Positions 5,801 through 16,583 of a stretch of 48,116 nucleotides of DNA are shown piece by piece. Source of the DNA: Candidatus Phycocordibacter aenigmaticus (GTDB lineage: Bacteria > Patescibacteriota > Minisyncoccia > Phycocordibacterales > Phycocordibacteraceae). Under the pieces are notes generated by a model that saw only the letters and a list, made by a program, of their open reading frames with translations, was not told the origin of the DNA and did no database searches. The position numbers and the translations under genes are program-made. Position 1 is the stretch's first letter, and the number at the start of each line of letters is the position of its first letter. The DNA lies in NCBI GenBank assembly GCA_045401115.1, contig CP174359.1:1-48116 (forward strand), given 5' to 3'.

Positions 5801-8800
5801 GTGCCGGCGGCGAGGTTGGTGTTGCTTGAGATGTCGATGGAGCTGAGAGTGGCAAGTGAACCAAGGCCGAGTGAGGTACGCGCGGTGGCGCCTGATTCAT
5901 AGGCAAAGGCACCGGAGCCGGTGGCGACGATGAACTGACCATCGCTTGCTGCAGCGCCAAGGGTGTTGAGGTCTTGGAGAACGCCGGTGGTGGTGAGGCC
6001 ACCGGTTGCTTGGGCAAGACCGCCGGTTGCGGTGACGGTGAGGGTGTCGCCGGTGAGAGTGATGCCGTTGCCGACGGCAAGGTTGGTATTGCTTGAGATG
6101 TCGATAGTGTCATTGTTCGTAAACACATTAGTCACCCCAGTGAGGAACGACTCGAGTCCCCCTTCAGTGTTGGTGTTGAGGATGGTGGTGGAAGCGTTGA
6201 TGAGAGCGTTGGCGTCAGTGTCAGTGTAGTGATCAAGGTCTGAGATTTGTGATTCGGTGATGGAGAGGTTGGCTAAGGTGGTGATGGATGCCACTGAGGT
6301 GGTAGCGGCGAGGTTTGAGATGAAGTTGTTGGTAGCGCGGGTGGTGGTGAAGTAGAGGTTGTTTGAACCTTCTGCAAGACCGTCAGTGGTGGTAGCGTAC
6401 CAGTCTGAAAGCGCAAAGTAATTTGCAAGGTCGGTGTCATCGGCAAGGGTTGAGCCCCAGACACGGGTGTCGATTTGGTCAGTCTTGAGGTATCCGCCTG
6501 CGGTGAGGACGACCACACTATCGTCAGTACCTGGGCCAATGCTTGGTGCATGGATGGTTGAGTCAAACTCAGCACCGTTGGTGAAGGTTTGTGTGCCGCC
6601 CCAGGTGTTTGAGGTGGTGGTACCAAAGGCAATGCCAAGCGTGTCACCGGTGAGCGTGAGTGGGTATGTGGTGGCGAGGTTGGTGTTGTCTGAGATGTCG
6701 ATGGAGCTGAGGGTGGCGAGTGAACCAAGACCAAGATTAGTGCGGGCACCTGAGGCAGTGGTGGCACCGGTGCCGCCGCGGGCGATGGTGAGGGTGCCGG
6801 TGGTGCCGGTGAGTATTGGAAGGCCGGTAGCGTCGGTGAGATCGAAGGCAGGGGTAGCGTCTGAGGCGCCGAGTGATACGGAGACGCCACCAAATGAGAC
6901 TGAGGAGTTGACGAGTTTGGCGTTAGTGACTGCGCTGTCTTCTATTTCAGAAGAGCCGATGGTGGTGCCGAGGTCTGCCGTCACATTGCCTGCTGAGTAG
7001 GTCAGGCCTCCTGAGAAGGTGGTGGTGGAGACCCAGGTGGGAGTGTCACCGGCGAGGGCGAGGATTTGTCCGTTGGTGCCTGCGGTGGTGGTGGCAAGTT
7101 GGTTAGTGCCATTGCCCACGAGGAGAGTGCCTGACTGTATTGCGCTCCATCCGGTGCCACCGTTGGAGACGCCGAGGATACCGGTGACGTCAGTGGCGAG
7201 GTTCACGAGTGCGGTGGTGACTGAGCCGGCGGTTGCTTTGAGGAAGCCAGTGAGGTTTCCGAGGGTGAAGGTGTTGCCGACTACGAGGTTTGAAGTGGAA
7301 GCGGTGTTTGATACGGCAAGGTTCGTAGTGGTGGCGTTGGTGGTGGTGCTGTTGGTTATTGTTGCGCTATCAGCAGCAAGTGTGGCGGTGTAGAAGTTGG
7401 TGCTGGTAGCATTCGTACTTGTTGCGTTTGTGGTGGTGAGGTTGGTGATGGTGGATGAGGCGTTGATGAGTACACCCACAGTAGTGGTTGGTGAGAGGGC
7501 GCCTCCGGTCAATTCAAAGGCTTGGCCGAAGGATGCGCCGCCGCCTGCGCCATCATCAGAACCATCACACAGATCAGCGCTGCCGGTTATCGCCACACAG
7601 AAGTCAGATGGTGATGTGCCATAGGTACCAAGGAAATCGAGTGCACCGCTAATACTTACACGTGGAAGTGTTGAAGTTGCGGTGGTTGTTGCAGTAAAGT
7701 GGCTCGCCACTGTTTCCCCCACTACTGAAAGTTTTGCGTATGGTGAGGTGGTGCCGATGCCGATGCGATCGTTCACACTATCAATAACCAACGTTGATGT
7801 GTCAAAGGTATAGTCACCAGTTGCAGTGTCTCCTGTATTTAATAAGAACGCGTCATCCACATTCAACGTATCTCCTGAGAGCGTAATGTTGGTGCCGGCT
7901 GCGAGGTTTGTATTGCTCGAGATGTCGATAGAGCTGAGGGTGGCGAGAGAGCCGAGGCCGAGGCTGGTACGTGCGGTTGAACCACTTTCATATGCAAAGG
8001 TGCCTGCTCCTGTTGCCACGATGAACTGACCGTCACTGGCTGCAGCACCAAGAGTGTTGAGATCTTCGAGTACTCCGGTGGTAGTGAGACCACCGGTTGC
8101 TTGGGCCAAGCCTCCTGCTGCGGTGACGGTGAGGGTGTCGCCGGTCAAAGTGATACCGTTGCCGACAGCAAGATTAGTTTCGTCTGAGATGTCGATGGAT
8201 GTACCGAGGGTCGCAGTGAGCGCATTGCCTGAGACCGTGAGACCGGTGCCGGTGAGATCGGTAACGGTCTCACTATTTACAGAAATTCCGGAATCGAATG
8301 TAGCAAGACCGGTGGTGCGAAGTGTTCCAGCAACGTCGAGTTTATATGAAGGAGTGGTGTCGCCGATGCCGACATTGCCATCAATAGGGTTCAAAATAAC
8401 ATTTACATCATTACCTACACTTGGTTCAGTACCTTGAAAATATACATACCCATTAACCCCAGCGACTGCACCAATTTTAGCTGCTCTATCATTAGAACCA
8501 GTGTTTGTTTCAAACCGTAAAATACCGTGTGTGGTACTCGGTGGTGTTGAAACAGACGAAAACACATGAAGTGGAGCTGACGGACTGTTTGTTCCAATAC
8601 CAACGTTACCGCCACTCGTAGCAAAGTATGCAGAGCCTGTTGAAGAGAGTTGTGTCGTTGAAGCATTACCAGTCACTGTAAGGAGTGAGCCGTCAAAAGT
8701 GAGGTTGCTTTCTGCAGTAAGTGCCGATGTGCCGTTGCCGGTGAGTAATGCATTAGCGGTAAGAGTGGTGGCTCCTGTACCTCCATTTGTAACAGGAAGT

Positions 8801-10788
8801 GTGCCAGTCACTTCACTGGTCAAGTCTACTGAAGTACCGAGTGTAGTTTGAAGGGCATTACCTGAGATAGTGAGGCCGGTGCCGGTGAGGTCGGTAATGT
8901 AATCACTACCGAGTGCGAAATTAGTTGTTGAAAGATTTGGCAATGTTGAGGTTGCGGTGGTACTTGTTGCCTGAAAGTACGGCGCTGCAATTTGTCGCCA
9001 TGCTTCAAGTCCACCAGCAAAGGTTGAGGTGCCAGTGCCGCTAATGGCAATGTTTTGTGTGGTGGTTGGTGCGAGAGCTGATTGTGAAAATATATTTGTA
9101 GCAAGTTCAAAAGCTTGACCAAACGATGAGCCACTATTGGTTGAAAGACAGGTACCATTAACTGCGAAACAACCGCCAGTAATATTAAAACCGACGTTCG
9201 AGGTTGTGGTGGCGGATCCGTTAATATTTAAACCTGAGAGTGTCGTAGTACCGAAGCCGTCGCCTGCAACAGAAAGGAAGTTTGTACTTGGTGATGATGA
9301 TGCCACCGAGAATACTGGCGTTGTTTGTCCAGCTGATGCTTGCGCTGCAAGTGTTGCATATGGCGACGTTGTCCCGACACCTACACCACCAGTAGTGTAA
9401 TAGATATCACTCCCTGCGGTAGTCCACTGTGTCGTACCTGATGTAGGGATATTCGTCCACGCACCTCCATTGTTCTTTACTTGAAGCGTGCCGCCATTAT
9501 CACGGAATCCATACCCACTGGCACTTGCTGTGTCTCCGAAATTAATGTATCGGCTCGTACCTGAAAGAATAACGTCGCCATAGACATCAAGTTGCGCCAA
9601 CGGTGAAGACGTCGCAACACCGATATATCCAGAAGAATCGAAAAAGAGTGTTGAGGTTGCACTCAACGTATCACCAGTTGCAGCATAATACGGAACATAT
9701 CCTAATGTACCGGAATTTACCGTACCACTACCACTGCCACCACCGACACCACTCGTGCCTGAAATTGACCCTCCTATAATAGTGGGGTTAGTAATAGTGA
9801 CACCATTCAAATTATCAATGCGGTTCGTAAGTGAGATGGCACGGAAGTTTCCAGCGCTGGCTTTATCGCTTGCGGCGGTGAAGCGGGTGATTTCTTGTCT
9901 GAGTTCATTTTCAAGTTGTTGGAGGCGTATGGTGAGATCATTATCTGAAACACCGCTATACGATACTTCTCGAGTGATGTTATTGACCACCGTGGTTGGC
10001 GTACGCTCTATGATGCGTTCAACAATTCTTGTATCGGCAGAAGATTCGTTAGAGTCACTGTTACTACCTAGTCCTCGTTTTGGATAGACCAATGCAGGTG
10101 GTGTGTAGTCATCGACCCAAAGTCGATCACCGATAGTACTAATAATTCCTTGTGGTGAAAAAGAGAAAGCAAGATTTTGATTCTGCAAAGAATCGACACT
10201 CGTCACTGATGCTGAAAGTTGCTGTGCCTTTCCAAGAAAAGTGGTTGATATTTTTTGCGCTTGTTTAAATCCTTTGTTTACCACTTCACGAACATGAGTA
10301 GGACTATAGTCTGCATATGAAAATGTAGACACACCAAATATCAATAACAATGCTAGTGACAAAACACCGATTTGTTTTGGTGCATGTTCAACGATACTTT
10401 TTTGTACTTTCTTTGCTAGAGGTTGTGCACGCCAGTATTCCTGTCTTCTTTGTTCAGCAAGTTCTTCTCGTCGCAGTGCATTCTTTTTTTGTTGTGACTC
10501 AAAAAACAGAATGAGTGAGTGCCGACTCACCTGCACATCCTTTCCTTCTTTTTTTGAAAGAAGAGTCCCAGTTCTTGCCAAAGAAATAATGTATTTCTCA
10601 CTGTAGCCGGTGAGCGTTTGAGCTTCAGAAACAGTGACATACACATCCCCTTTTGAAATGACTTCTGCTTGACGCTCTTCATGCGAAAGATGCGACAAAG
10701 TACCTTGTTCGCGTTCCTTTATATGTGCACCAGCGCGACCCTTTTCATAGGGTGGCTGATTACTTTCTTCGTGTTCGTTATCAGTCAT
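1..10788 (-). CDS. Giant membrane-anchored repetitive surface protein (>=3596 aa, 3' end outside window): N-terminal HTH_17/excisionase-like domain, one TM helix, then an S/T/G-rich repeat stalk
   Basis: Translated by hand. ATG at 10788 ([14 protein letters not shown]...) has an in-frame TAG just upstream. The frame is still open at position 1 (...[34 protein letters not shown]) and at spot checks near 5400, 7300 and 8400. The ORF is absent from the track, consistent with no stop inside the window. HTH-like segment aa ~49-96 ([26 protein letters not shown]); hydrophobic helix aa ~140-158 ([19 protein letters not shown]); recurrent GIGT(T/S)SP-type and tail-fibre-like motifs. Confidence 0.93.
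2972..6720. repeat. Second intragenic module (~630 bp) in three copies: ~2972-3601, ~4157-4786, ~6107-6720
   Basis: Each copy starts gtgtcattgttcgtaaacacattagtcaccccagtgaggaacgactcgag. Copies 1 and 2 are 1185 bp apart and near-identical. Confidence 0.92.
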
Positions 10789-11179
10789 TCGTTTTTGGAA
10801 TATATCTATATGATAACTGGATATTTTCTAAAAATAGGGCTTCAGAAAAAACTCCTGTGGATTTGAAAGAATAGAAACCACTTGTAAAGATTTTTGAAGT
10901 ACATACGAATGAGTAGATTTCTTTCTTACAATTCCCTTTTAAGGACCTTAATGTAATGAAGAAGAAATAGTACTTTTGAAGATACTCATACCACCCCACC
11001 GCCTCTGTGACGGGTATCGATTCTATTATAGGAGTGGCGCTTGTCCGAGGTCGGACATGATATGTGTGCAGGCGGTTTGTGATTATATGCATTCCTTATA
11101 TATATAGAACATCAGTCCATATAAGGACGATCCTCTATATGAGGTACCAATATATGAACGTAGGGTTAAAAATCCATAG

Positions 11180-11220
11180 AGGCACCAAATATCGAGGACC
11201 GACCTCGATATTTGGTGCCT
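11180..11220. repeat. Perfect 18-bp-arm inverted repeat with GAGG-ACCGA-CCTC core (dispersed palindrome family)
   Basis: AGGCACCAAATATCGAGG accga CCTCGATATTTGGTGCCT. Confidence 0.9.
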
Positions 11221-11442
11221 GCTGTCGTTGTTAAGTACGGTCTTTGGCGGGTAAGAGGTGTTTTTAACTATCTCGGATTGCCGAGAAAATATTTATACGG
11301 CTAAAAATATAGTTTTTATGGATATCTCGGATACATGAATACTAACCTAAGACACAGAGGCTCTAGTGATTACTATCTACTACGACAGTAGATACACGTT
11401 CGATAATGCGTTCAGTAACTACACCTCTAATGGATCTGGGAT

Positions 11443-12354
11443 TTAGTTCTTCTCTTTCTTTGGGAGCACAAGTGTTGGAGGTGTATAGCTATCTTGCCAC
11501 AAGAAGTCACTAAGGGCGCTGATAACACCAGGAACAGAGAACGTAGCGGCAATGTTTTGCACATCATCTACCGTTACACTCTCAAAGAGAGTAGTGGCAA
11601 TTAAGTGCGCTGTTTTTTGAGATTCAATTATTATTATAGAGGCAGTTTTACCTGCGTCAGTCACCACACGTTGCGAGACTGACCGCATGTCAGATGCAAG
11701 TTCCTTTGTAATCATGTCGCGGTCAATCCAGAGATCGGCGAGGTGATCAGAGAACCGGTCATGCCAGTTTAAAAATTTTACCGGTGCGTGGTGGAGCGTC
11801 AGTACACCATTGGTATAACCAACGACGATTCTTTTTGAAGCACTGAGTACTAATTCCCCACTTTGCCGGTATACATTCTGCAGTGTCTCTGTCGCGCCAC
11901 TATTACGTACCCCTATTTCGACTGTCATTATTTTTTGTGATACTGCACGAGCGATATTCTGTGGCCCACCATCTTGAAAAGCAGTATAACCCACCGTAAG
12001 AGCAGAGAAGAACACAAATGCACCAGCTACCGCACCAACAAGGCGCGCAAACGTAACTGTAGTAGCATTGTCAGAACCAAGAGAAGTGGCGGCTTGTTGG
12101 TGAAGAGAATTAAAATATTCACGTGAACGTGCTGCACTAAGTTCTTTAGTGCGTCTTTCTTTTTCTTTTTTAACTGAATCAACGAATGTGAGAAACGAAT
12201 CACGGTCAATGAACCATACGCCATTTATTTTTTCACCTACTATCTGCTGAGTGCGCGCAAGACGACCAATGTAATCAGACGTATATCCAAATTCTTTAGC
12301 AAGTAATTTTGCTGAAGCATGGTTATTATTTTTAGGTGTGGAGGCGGTAGTCAT
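11443..12354 (-). CDS. HTH_17-like domain + TM protein; stand-alone paralog of the giant protein's N-terminal anchor region
   Basis: 303-aa ORF. HTH motif AKLLAKEFGYTSDYIGRLARTQQIVGEKINGVWFIDRDSF; TM LVGAVAGAFVFFSALTVGY. C-terminus ISALSDFLWQDSYTPPTLVLPK matches [22 protein letters not shown] in the giant protein. Confidence 0.88.
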   Translation of the reverse strand: MTTASTPKNNNHASAKLLAKEFGYTSDYIGRLARTQQIVGEKINGVWFIDRDSFLTFVDSVKKEKERRTKELSAARSREYFNSLHQQAATSLGSDNATTVTFARLVGAVAGAFVFFSALTVGYTAFQDGGPQNIARAVSQKIMTVEIGVRNSGATETLQNVYRQSGELVLSASKRIVVGYTNGVLTLHHAPVKFLNWHDRFSDHLADLWIDRDMITKELASDMRSVSQRVVTDAGKTASIIIIESQKTAHLIATTLFESVTVDDVQNIAATFSVPGVISALSDFLWQDSYTPPTLVLPKKEKN

Positions 12355-12513
12355 AAATAGACGAACTACCTTTTAGTTTACTAGTTATTTCGGCTTTTTT
12401 GGCACAGAAAAAATACCAATGTGGAATATCTACAAACAAGCAGAGTACTACGTTACTACTGTAACCCAGTCATCATATACCCTCTTTGTGACCCTAATGT
12501 GTGAGTAGGAATA

Positions 12514-13422
12514 CTATGATGCAAAGATGTCTTGCAAAAAATCAATACCGAGTTCAAAAAGAACACCAAATGAGCCGAGGAGTGTAGTGAGGAAACCAGC
12601 GATAAGATCGATACCTTGCATAAATATCGTTCCAAAGTAGCTTATTATTGCCCCCTGAGCCTCATCACTCACCGCCCCTGATGAGAATGCTGTATTAGCA
12701 TCCTGAGTGAATGACCATTCAGCAGGAACATGTGCACCACCTGCCATAACAATAAGTGTGATGATTAGTGCTACTGGTAGAAAATAACTAATAAAAACAT
12801 AGTTGTTTTCTGAAGGTTTTTTATTCTCGTATACTCGAGATTCCTTCAAAGGTGTGTGTGTTTCTTTTTGATGAGGTATTACCCCACCCATACTCTGTGA
12901 AGCATGTAATGACGATGTATGCACCAAGTTTTTATGAATGCGAGGTTGTATATGCGCTGTTCCTACCTTACGCGTCCCCTCTACTTTCTTCTGTACCGGT
13001 ACTATTCTTTCGTTATAAGGCGTATATTTCTCTTTCAGTGGTAAGTGAGCCGGAGCATCATCTTTAATATAGGTCACTGAGCTCCATGTATAGAGGACAT
13101 CGGGTTTTTCTGGTTGTTTATTCTGAGTATGAAGTGTATTTAACGGTATAGTGGTAGTAGCTTTGTCCTCTTTAAGGGGAGGACTTTCCTCGCCTGCATG
13201 TTCTTGATCATGTTGTTCTGATTCATCCTCGCATGCAGGAGTATCGATTCCTGCATGTTCGCGCAAGTCTGATTCATCTATATACCAAGAACGCCCAATT
13301 CGGGTTGCCGAGATTTTTCTATCGCGAGCGAGTTGTCCGACATAGTCTTGTGTATAGCCACTTATTTCTGCAGCTCGTTTAGACGAGATGTATGCTTGGC
13401 CGTTAATTTGTACTTCTTCCAT
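12514..13422 (-). CDS. HTH_17-like domain + TM protein
   Basis: HTH motif YISSKRAAEISGYTQDYVGQLARDRKISATRIGRSWYIDESDL; low-complexity linker; TM YFLPVALIITLIVMAGG. Start moved from the track's TTG at 13440 to ATG 13422, which lies 6 nt after a TACAAT -10. Confidence 0.85.
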   Translation of the reverse strand: MEEVQINGQAYISSKRAAEISGYTQDYVGQLARDRKISATRIGRSWYIDESDLREHAGIDTPACEDESEQHDQEHAGEESPPLKEDKATTTIPLNTLHTQNKQPEKPDVLYTWSSVTYIKDDAPAHLPLKEKYTPYNERIVPVQKKVEGTRKVGTAHIQPRIHKNLVHTSSLHASQSMGGVIPHQKETHTPLKESRVYENKKPSENNYVFISYFLPVALIITLIVMAGGAHVPAEWSFTQDANTAFSSGAVSDEAQGAIISYFGTIFMQGIDLIAGFLTTLLGSFGVLFELGIDFLQDIFAS

Positions 13423-13441
13423 AGCTCTATTGTAATACAAA

Positions 13442-13468
13442 AAGCCGCGACATGTGCTGTCGCGGCTT
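13442..13468 (-). terminator. Intrinsic terminator after gatB
   Basis: 11-bp stem AAGCCGCGACA/TGTCGCGGCTT, followed by a U run on the minus strand. Confidence 0.75.
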
Positions 13469-13484
13469 GTTTCTGTGTAGAAGT

Positions 13485-14897
13485 CTATTGTACGCCAAGC
13501 TCTTCTTTGATGAGTGTGGCGAGTTCTTTTGGATTAGCGGCTCCTTTTGATACCTTCATACCTTGCCCAATGAGAAATTGAATAACTGACTCTTTCCCCT
13601 GCTTGAGCTCTTCGGCAACCTCTGGGTTCTCTTTGATGACAGTTTGCGCATAGCCGCGAAGTGCTTCGGTGTCGTGCACCTGCATAAGGTTGCGTGCCTC
13701 AGCGATAGATTTCGCTCGCCCGCCCTTTTCAAGCATCTCAGTAAGAATATCTTTTGCGCCGCGTGATGATACTGAGTTTTCAGCAACCAAGTCAATGAGT
13801 TCCATAAATGCACCTCCTTCGAGATTGTGGAGTGCGTCTGCCATGCCACTTCCCCGCACGTCACTGAGTAAGTAGTTGGTTGCTGTTTTTATTTTTTGTA
13901 CATCATCAGTGCGTGCTAACACTTCGGCATCAAAGAATGCGCCGAATGTGCGGTCGAGTGTAAGCGTCACTGCATCGTCTTCTTTTACACCCAGTGCCGT
14001 GTACCGTTCTCGTTTTTCCCATGGAAGTTCAGGTAGGTCTGCTTTGAGTGTGTCGATATTAAACTCGGGAATATCGGACAGTTTTAGTTTTGGTAGATCA
14101 GGGTCTGGAAAGTAACGGTAGTCATGTGACTCTTCTTTCATACGTTGTGAAAATGTTGACTGTGAATTTTCGTCCCAGCCACGTGTTTCTTGTACGAGTG
14201 TACCTCCCTCTTCAAGCACTTGAGTATGTCGCTCGATTTCGTAGGCAACCGCACGTTCCATAGCTTTGAATGAGTTGAGATTTTTCACTTCGACTTTAGT
14301 GCCAAGTGTTGCGTCTTTTGATATTGAAATGTTCGCTTCAACGCGCATCTCCCCTTTCTCCATATTTGCATCAGACACACCAAGCGTGCGGAGCAGGAGC
14401 TGAAGTTCTTGAGCGAAACGACTGGCAGTCTCAGCATCGTGTATGACCGGCTCAGTCACCAGTTCCATCAGTGGTACACCAGCTCGGTTAAAGTCGACGA
14501 GACTATACGCCCCGTGTGTATGCTGACTACGCGCGGTATCTTCTTCAAGATGAATACGGGTTATCTCAACCCCCGCAAGAGACCCACCAGAGATTAATGG
14601 ATATTTATATTGACTGATTTGATACCCTTTTGGTAAGTCTGGGTAGAAATAGTTTTTACGATCAAATTCTGTATAGTCGGCAACGGTACCTTCAATAGCT
14701 GCACCAACACGTAGCACGTGTGCCACAGCCGACTTATTGATAACCGGCAATGTGCCAGGGAATGCCATACATACCGGACAGATATGTGTATTAGGTTCAC
14801 CAGCATGAGGGTCGTTCGCTGAACGACAGAACATTTTAGTCTTGGTCTTCAGTTCCGCGTGGATCTCTAGTCCTATTGTCGGGGTGTATTTTGCCAT
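13485..14897 (-). CDS. gatB: Asp-tRNA(Asn)/Glu-tRNA(Gln) amidotransferase subunit B
   Basis: IGLEIHAEL, RKNYFYPDLPKGYQISQY, HLEEDTA, DFNRAGVPLMELVTEP, EANISI, VEVKNLNSF, YRYFPDPDLP motifs. Confidence 0.98.
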   Translation of the reverse strand: MAKYTPTIGLEIHAELKTKTKMFCRSANDPHAGEPNTHICPVCMAFPGTLPVINKSAVAHVLRVGAAIEGTVADYTEFDRKNYFYPDLPKGYQISQYKYPLISGGSLAGVEITRIHLEEDTARSQHTHGAYSLVDFNRAGVPLMELVTEPVIHDAETASRFAQELQLLLRTLGVSDANMEKGEMRVEANISISKDATLGTKVEVKNLNSFKAMERAVAYEIERHTQVLEEGGTLVQETRGWDENSQSTFSQRMKEESHDYRYFPDPDLPKLKLSDIPEFNIDTLKADLPELPWEKRERYTALGVKEDDAVTLTLDRTFGAFFDAEVLARTDDVQKIKTATNYLLSDVRGSGMADALHNLEGGAFMELIDLVAENSVSSRGAKDILTEMLEKGGRAKSIAEARNLMQVHDTEALRGYAQTVIKENPEVAEELKQGKESVIQFLIGQGMKVSKGAANPKELATLIKEELGVQ

Positions 14898-16220: not shown

Positions 16221-16583
16221 TTATTTTAGTTTTTTGATGAGTGTACTTAACATTTTTTGTACAGAGGAAAGAGTGTCGTAAATAGGTTTAATATCCTTCC
16301 TATGATAGATCTGTTCCGCAAGAATGAGCTGTGTTTCCAATTCTGCGGCCGATCCGGCTGCAATACCCAGAAATCGCCTAAAATCCTTTTTACTTTCTCG
16401 TCTTGCACCCTCAGCAATATTAGACGGTATCGACACGGCGCACCGTCGCATCTGACTCACTAAACCATATTGCTCCTCTTGGGGCAAATCCTGCGTAAAA
16501 TCATATACCGCGGCTGCGAGCTCTATCGCAGACTGCCATACTCGCAAACTACGGAAGGCGCTCTGTACATTACCATCTTCCAT
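16221..16583 (-). CDS. Four helix bundle protein (23S rRNA intervening-sequence protein / Avd-like family)
   Basis: 120 aa with the family signature FRSLRVWQSAIEL...YGLVSQMRRCAVSIPSNIAEG...FRRFLGIAAGSAAELETQL. Confidence 0.95.
   Translation of the reverse strand: MEDGNVQSAFRSLRVWQSAIELAAAVYDFTQDLPQEEQYGLVSQMRRCAVSIPSNIAEGARRESKKDFRRFLGIAAGSAAELETQLILAEQIYHRKDIKPIYDTLSSVQKMLSTLIKKLK

Follow-up and report, generated by a model that had tools for sequence, protein, structure and literature searches.

The DNA examined here (the window) is a stretch of 48,116 nucleotides, the first 48 kb of the single-contig genome of Candidatus Phycocordibacter aenigmaticus, which is 721,362 bp long with 44% GC and which its relatives place among the Paceibacteria/Minisyncoccia (Patescibacteria). 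On its minus strand, downstream of gatB, lie three consecutive genes (Table 1) whose products each carry a helix-turn-helix (HTH) followed by a transmembrane (TM) segment: P0002, the 303-residue P0001 that is our subject, and a giant fibre protein whose open reading frame (ORF) crosses the contig origin. An initial annotation, made from the sequence alone, had described P0001 as a stalk-less copy of the membrane anchor of this neighbouring giant and had suggested that it might be a component of a membrane complex, as part of hetero-oligomeric anchors or as a decoy or regulatory subunit, or a spare anchor cassette. Here we compare the middle gene with its relatives and consider how it arose.

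A shared HTH module in three neighbouring genes

The motif GY(T/S)xxY(V/I)xxLAR is common to P0002, P0001 and the giant, with instances including GYTQDYVGQLARD and GYTSDYIGRLART, and pairwise BLASTP relates P0001 to P0002 with E 5e-8 and P0002 to the giant with E 1e-3. Between P0001 and the giant BLASTP returns two separate segments, one spanning the HTH and the post-HTH helix (34% identity, E 4e-7) and the other the post-TM, pre-stalk motif (48% identity, E 4e-11). The ORFs and these alignments bear out the initial annotation in its account of three consecutive, co-oriented minus-strand genes sharing a motif, and in its pairing of both the post-HTH helix and the post-TM motif of P0001 with those of the giant. 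Searches of the 721-kb genome with P0001 and with Pfam HTH_17 gave meaningful HTH_17-like scores for these three genes only.

Assignment of the module to a known family is closest for P0002, which scores 30 bits against PF12728 (HTH_17; curated cut-off 27 bits) in a six-frame search and 26.5 bits with hmmscan, and matches the TIGR01764 excisionase model with E 5.8e-5. The giant reaches 23 and 18.3 bits against PF12728, under the cut-off, and P0001 has no Pfam match; PF12728 is matched at E<=0.01 by 9 of 23 family relatives. A sequence-profile search of the family alignment against the PDB gave no match. An AF2 model of P0001 built from a 10-sequence alignment has a predicted local distance difference test score (pLDDT) >90 for residues 10-80 only, and there the secondary structure (strand 12-14, helices 15-22 and 26-34, strands 40-43 and 46-50) is that of a beta-alpha-alpha-beta-beta winged helix. 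After the wing strands a long helix, residues 51-93, runs into a second one at 95-127 spanning the hydrophobic segment. For the ectodomain (residues 139-303) pLDDT is <50, too low for the model to tell whether it forms a closed domain. The top Foldseek matches in the PDB are 8csh (pSK1 Par, 31% identity), 5i44 (RacA), 4j2n (mycobacteriophage Xis) and 6amk (BldC), with probabilities of 0.97-0.99, target TM-scores of 0.57-0.76 and E-values (>=0.04) that are weak because most of the P0001 model is of low confidence.

Along its length P0001 comprises the winged HTH (about residues 12-50), the long basic helix (51-93), a TM segment (about 103-125), a juxtamembrane helical region carrying WHDRFSDHLADLWIDRD at residues 197-213 (the LWIDRD module) and a pre-stalk motif, FSVPGVISALSDFLWQDSYTPPTLVLPK, at residues 272-299, directly followed by TAA. 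The earlier description of this architecture, with HTH, basic helix, TM, juxtamembrane part and no stalk, was right. P0001 is without a signal peptide and has a Lys/Arg-rich helix ahead of its single hydrophobic segment; since in the giants this one TM segment leads on to a fibre, the module is predicted to lie N-in, C-out. Its turn and recognition helix, GYxxDYxxxLAR, is 80-90% conserved across 243 HTH copies in 150 cluster representatives, and such near-invariance fits one common ligand, which need not be DNA, better than many different operators. Judging from fold and topology, the module would most likely serve as a membrane-tethered, predicted DNA-binding head at the cytoplasmic base of the fibre.

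An exhaustive search of representatives found 1131 relatives, and the matches listed fall into three classes. Class A, which includes P0002, is made up of proteins of ~190-340 aa in which a long linker joins one or two HTHs to a distal TM segment; in P0002 itself a long linker of low complexity separates an N-terminal HTH_17 from a TM segment near residue 215, and the protein closes with a short hydrophobic tail ending FELGIDFLQDIFAS. In class B proteins (~240-280 aa) the HTH and basic helix are followed by a TM segment near residue 100, and the C-terminus carries the motif FSDEV..PVF..(F/L)xVPV. Class C comprises the giants, from ~900 to >4000 aa, in which HTH, helix, TM and juxtamembrane region are followed by a neck with the consensus ERxPTTVVxN(I/V)T..GVS..LQxLENELR and then by the fibre. 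Several giants (P0005, encoded at 7475-8626 of locus L017, and those of L025, L034, L035 and L036) have two tandem HTH-coiled-coil units before the TM segment, and in P0005 both copies are identical over 38 residues (VAARFGYTADYVSRLAREGKIAGEKVDGVWFVDPASLA), which points to a very recent internal duplication.

The giant of the window has its HTH at ~10492-10641, its TM segment at ~10315-10371 and its post-TM motif at ~10075-10107, followed by the neck and a Gly/Thr/Ser-rich repeat fibre. When its ORF is joined across the origin as a circle it stops after 3 codons, and a different frame continues for 521 aa in the last ~1.6 kb of the contig; this continuation contains a bacterial immunoglobulin (Ig)-like domain, ends in an acidic tail and shows homology to two other giants, P0006 and P0008, at their C-termini. 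Given that homology, the circularisation junction lies inside the repeat region and is off by 1-2 nt or collapsed, and the true giant is at least about 4117 aa long.

Anchor types, gene order and the sequence beyond the stop

The best relatives of P0001 that reach past the TM segment are class C giants, namely P0006 (1957 aa), P0008 (2298 aa), P0009 (2733 aa) and P0012 (1933 aa). In a multiple alignment all four run collinear with P0001, starting at the HTH and including the YTPP motif, and P0001 aligns over nearly its whole length with residues 15-330 of P0006. P0001 and the anchor of the neighbouring giant are about 30% identical, and P0001 has a juxtamembrane module of ~100 aa that the neighbouring giant is without and other giants have. 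It is not, then, a copy of the neighbour's anchor, as had been proposed, but an anchor of a different type with the extra LWIDRD module. On these alignments P0001 appears to be the anchor module of a long-type giant and would not be a purpose-built stalk-less subunit.

Within the genus anchors are of two types, distinguished by this module. Long-type anchors, with LWxDRD, are those of P0001 and of the giants of L017, L023, L027, L033, L041 (P0006) and L042, and short-type anchors, without it, are those of the giant in the window and of L024, L026, L028 and L032. The type of anchor goes together with the form of the class A protein encoded upstream: with long-type giants this protein is long and homologous to P0002 throughout, whereas with short-type giants it is shorter and matches P0002 in the HTH only, and the long form has an LFExGLDF tail that the short form is without. 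Full-length P0002 homologues (277-336 aa) lie upstream of the giants of L017, L023, L025, L027, L033, L041 and L042. This covariation hints that the two proteins work together. The window combines a long class A gene (P0002), a truncated long-type anchor (P0001) and an intact short-type giant.

The order Obg, GatB, class A, giant is found in 12 related loci (ten genomes of the same genus and two metagenome contigs), and the three genes do lie within one conserved gene neighbourhood; the order gatB, HTH-TM, HTH-TM, giant is another matter, the middle gene being present in 0/12. Nearly all of the related contigs end inside the giant gene, the locus being one that breaks assemblies.

Homology to the giants does not end with P0001. 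After its TAA, three-frame translation finds ELNPRSIRGVVTERIIERVSTVVVDSNH and then a stop in another frame, and within it ELNPRSIRGVVTERIIERVSTVVVDS (11449-11372, 26 codons) matches the segment that comes next after the YTPP motif in the giant family. This out-of-frame relic is 46% identical to P0005 by tblastn, and tblastn with the neighbouring giant links the in-frame P0001 and the out-of-frame relic as high-scoring segment pairs. For a measure of chance we compared the out-of-frame peptides around the stops of all 689 genome ORFs >=150 aa with the corresponding part of the necks in ten giants; among these 1376 peptides the relic comes first, with a score of 49, the next best having 40. P0001 was thus correctly described as stopping right after the YTPPxLV motif, but homology runs on for 26 further codons in a different frame, and since it does the stop is secondary.

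Beyond 11366, tblastn finds no homology to any giant or class A protein, and elsewhere in the genome it finds no further fibre-coding DNA besides the giant. In the 0.6-kb spacer no trace of a fibre or of a class A gene from a donor was found by tblastn with giants and class A proteins. A recent gene conversion between the relic and the giant was considered and discarded, there being no DNA identity beyond that expected from shared coding. A search of 10600-13600 with Rfam gave nothing credible, the sole match being a meaningless long non-coding RNA at E 0.1.

Origin and present state of the middle gene

We consider it probable that P0001 is what truncation has left of a long-type giant gene once of full length, and that it has no demonstrated role of its own. 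Downstream of gatB, the usual locus of the genus would consist of a class A HTH-linker-TM gene and one giant gene, the product of the latter comprising a cytoplasmic winged HTH, a basic coiled-coil helix, one TM segment, a juxtamembrane module, a neck and a fibre of thousands of residues. The resident pair here would have been P0002 and a giant with a P0001-type long anchor; we read P0001 as the remnant of that resident because a long-type anchor pairs with a long class A protein, the form present in the window. Duplication or acquisition would have brought a short-type giant to the downstream side, and the resident giant would have lost everything past the neck. The present stop would be due to a frameshift in the purine-rich sequence that follows YTPPTLVLPK, with 26 codons surviving out of frame and the rest deleted. 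The intact short-type giant 0.6 kb downstream is today the genome's sole fibre gene. We observe the homology, the relic and the synteny, and that other fibre DNA is absent; the order of events, replacement or duplication and then deletion, we infer from them. The surviving ORF could still give a membrane-inserted HTH-TM protein without a stalk, and the chances that such a product does anything seem to us evenly balanced. P0001 would then represent ordinary turnover at a fast-changing locus, in which the surviving piece is intact and perhaps still produced.

Several observations weigh against a mere remnant, and together they make up the case for a gene that, although it came about by truncation, is at present kept as a functional anchor without a stalk and works with P0002, the giant or both, for instance as a regulatory or competing subunit of an oligomeric fibre base or as a partner needed by the long class A protein. 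The P0001 ORF is fully intact over its 303 codons. When 15 long-type anchors are aligned, P0001 deviates at 0/18 near-invariant columns and at 6/47 columns that are >=70% conserved, within the range of 1-13 seen for intact giants, whereas the relic deviates at 3/6 of the positions conserved in the neck (Fisher p for 0/18 vs 3/6 about 0.01, calculated by hand); an intact anchor beside a decayed relic is the pattern that continued selection on the anchor would give. Nor is P0001 the only complete anchor without a stalk. P0010 (L037, 359-1908) is a complete long-type anchor of 301 aa that ends at the position equivalent to the end of P0001; its gene is flanked by a class A gene and by GAPDH and is not followed by any fibre gene. 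P0007, identical in two assemblies (L038, 805-2054; L039, 405-1654), is a long-type anchor of 363 aa that stops in the neck coiled coil (..LQLQILRVLL*), with an Ig-like domain going on in another frame to the contig end, and it is a second giant broken at the anchor/stalk junction. In distant Paceibacteria, moreover, class B genes for HTH-coiled-coil-TM proteins of ~250 aa are conserved next to fibre genes: L018 and L019 have the order GatB, class A, class B (in L018 at 7953-8798), then a giant with a plain signal peptide, and L029 has GatB, class B and then several signal-peptide surface proteins. A stand-alone HTH-coiled-coil-TM protein beside a fibre gene is a viable state, since these three loci keep the anchor as a separate gene. 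The covariation of class A form and anchor type, in suggesting an interaction, also favours a maintained partner.

Even so, we regard maintenance of P0001 as unlikely, though the best of the alternatives. The middle gene is kept in none of the 12 related loci, and the ~30% identity of P0001 to the anchor of the giant does not imply that the two assemble together. A word-based protein search with P0001 returned P0001 alone; the collections searched hold no close orthologue or sister strain by which selection could be gauged, and an exact-DNA scan of metagenome contigs gave no strain variant. The contrast between anchor and relic would be void, and the argument from a decayed relic with it, if the deletion junction lies inside the neck, as it may. 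The initial annotation had set its proposal against a recent truncation of a normally long gene, free of purifying selection; the relatives of 1933-2733 aa and the out-of-frame relic speak for the truncation, whereas the 0/18 deviations at near-invariant columns do not show a loss of constraint. In three lineages breaks fall at the anchor/stalk junction, which would agree with the annotation's idea of a spare anchor cassette.

The remaining explanations deny the truncation. The existence of a large family of ~250-aa HTH-coiled-coil-TM proteins would allow P0001 to be an ancestrally short, stand-alone anchor that never had a stalk, the out-of-frame match being due to chance. A neck-motif hidden Markov model (HMM) run over the six-frame genome found the giant and not the relic, which counts against the truncation reading; the significance of the relic depends on its position because the HMM alone fails to recover it genome-wide. 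Yet the relic ranks 1/1376, the full-length relatives of P0001 are giants, and P0001 is without the class B FSDEV..PVF..VPV motif. That its stop might be a natural class B C-terminus was examined and rejected: MAFFT co-aligned FS and P columns, but hhalign of the C-terminal regions gave a probability of about 0. We give an ancestrally short gene very little credence, and still less an assembly or sequencing artefact in which the stop and frameshift are wrong and the gene is really fused to a fibre. It is true that in the same assembly the frame of the giant does not match across the contig origin, but at P0001 the frame, even if read through, closes 28 codons on and no fibre-coding DNA follows, and an independent Logan contig (2956 bp, found in 4 samples) is 100% identical over P0001, the stop and frameshift, the relic and the spacer. 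Truncation of a long-type giant is the reading we retain.

Comparable systems and other features of the window

The P0001 model has the same order of fold elements, beta-alpha-alpha-beta-beta and then a long helix, as Xis, BldC, RacA and pSK1 Par, of which RacA and Par also continue into a coiled coil. Those proteins are soluble, whereas here the coiled coil would enter a TM helix and, in the giants, lead on to a huge extracellular fibre. The predicted topology (N-in, HTH, basic juxtamembrane stretch, single TM, extracytoplasmic C-terminal part) is the same as that of the ToxR/CadC regulators and of RodZ. ToxR and CadC are bitopic proteins with an N-terminal cytoplasmic OmpR-type HTH, the head of ToxR acting on DNA, and RodZ is bitopic with an Xre-type HTH, its head binding cytoplasmic MreB. 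By analogy, these proteins could offer the closest model for how the module works. There is no Pfam or NCBIfam match to OmpR/PhoB-type Trans_reg_C, the fold matching MerR/excisionase-like proteins instead, nor to RodZ models, and the part outside the cell is a fibre here, or in P0001 only a helical stub.

As a gene remnant P0001 resembles those of other surface loci, where likewise the truncated 5' part of an adhesin-like gene lies beside an intact paralogue after a frameshift and then a deletion. It differs from such pseudogenes in that the module is complete and undecayed and its end falls on a domain boundary, and similar stand-alone modules are genes in relatives. The class B proteins (P0048, P0051 and that of L018 7953-8798) have the HTH, basic helix and TM segment at about residue 100 in common with P0001, and their genes occupy the same slot between the class A and fibre genes; their ectodomain differs, with no detectable homology to P0001 after the TM segment, and the fibres next to them have an ordinary signal peptide instead of a fused anchor.

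The finding suggests that in these reduced-genome Paceibacteria the fibre locus turns over fast, whole fibres being lost or replaced while the anchor end survives. The 303-aa ORF should not be annotated as a designed subunit, and taken alone the finding changes little. In this order giant fibres consistently adjoin, or are fused to, cytoplasmic excisionase/RacA-like winged HTH plus TM proteins, and literature searches on HTH-anchored giant proteins in Patescibacteria/Parcubacteria did not turn up a description of it. Should the head bind DNA, an attachment organelle would be linked to the chromosome, physically or through regulation, in an unusual way, and anchor-only remnants would be natural constructs for the head on its own. 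A bolder proposal, which we put forward as speculation and think doubtful, is that the HTH-coiled-coil-TM head is a self-contained, selectable, membrane-tethered RacA/Par-like unit which, by binding DNA or some other common ligand, connects the fibre with which the episymbiont attaches, at its base, with the nucleoid or with gene control, that stalk-less copies are kept as class A partners or to tune or compete with the fibre base, and that the anchor/neck junction is a recurrent recombination point at which fibres are swapped onto resident anchors.

Table 1. Features of the window around the three HTH-TM genes
Feature	Position	Strand	Remarks
SecA	19617-17137	minus	
Four-helix-bundle protein	16221-16583		120 aa; between SecA and Obg; TIGR02436
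Obg	16060-15035	minus	
gatB	14897-13485	minus	NCBIfam GatB equivalog, E 4.6e-163; conserved upstream neighbour, same synteny in 12 related loci
Terminator-like hairpin 3' of gatB	13468-13442	minus	11-bp stem, 7 GC pairs, then T run
P0002 (class A)	13422 (ATG) or 13440 (TTG)-12514	minus	302 or 308 aa
P0001 (middle gene)	12354-11443	minus	303 aa; ends TAA
Out-of-frame relic	11449-11366	minus	three-frame translation and linked tblastn segment pairs
AT-rich spacer	11365-10789	minus	37% GC; ~0.6 kb
Palindrome	11180-11220	no strand	18 bp, perfect, 5-nt loop; genome-wide hairpin family
P0004	10781-11092		103-aa ORF, probably spurious; no Pfam match, no family match
Giant fibre gene	10788-1	minus	3596 aa open; runs off window; short-type anchor

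The HTH genes would open a new transcription unit, since a terminator-like hairpin follows gatB. Further upstream, the 120-aa four-helix-bundle protein, also encoded on the minus strand, belongs by its TIGR02436 match to the family of 23S rRNA intervening-sequence proteins, and its gene is missing between SecA and Obg in most of the related loci examined.

The spacer upstream of the giant contains two copies, 54 nt apart, of a repeat that is unique in the genome, ..ATATCTCGGAT (11258-11278) and ..CTATCTCGGAT (11312-11332), one of which overlaps a small hairpin (TCTCGGATTGCCGAGA); the pair may be due to chance or may be an operator. The palindrome downstream of P0001 is a member of a hairpin family with the core CGAGGTCGGTCCTCG, and is probably a terminator or a repetitive extragenic palindromic (REP)-like element. 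Intergenic palindromic hairpins with the core (A)TAGCGAGGTCGGTCCTCGCTA(T) occur in at least 12 copies in the 721-kb genome, in the window at 11180-11220, 21478 and 41931 and elsewhere at 90914, 90976, 96984, 102846, 202587, 265662, 591095, 592130 and 624282. Some copies stand directly after other terminator-like hairpins, and the family may consist of REP-like elements or mark a common protein-binding site.

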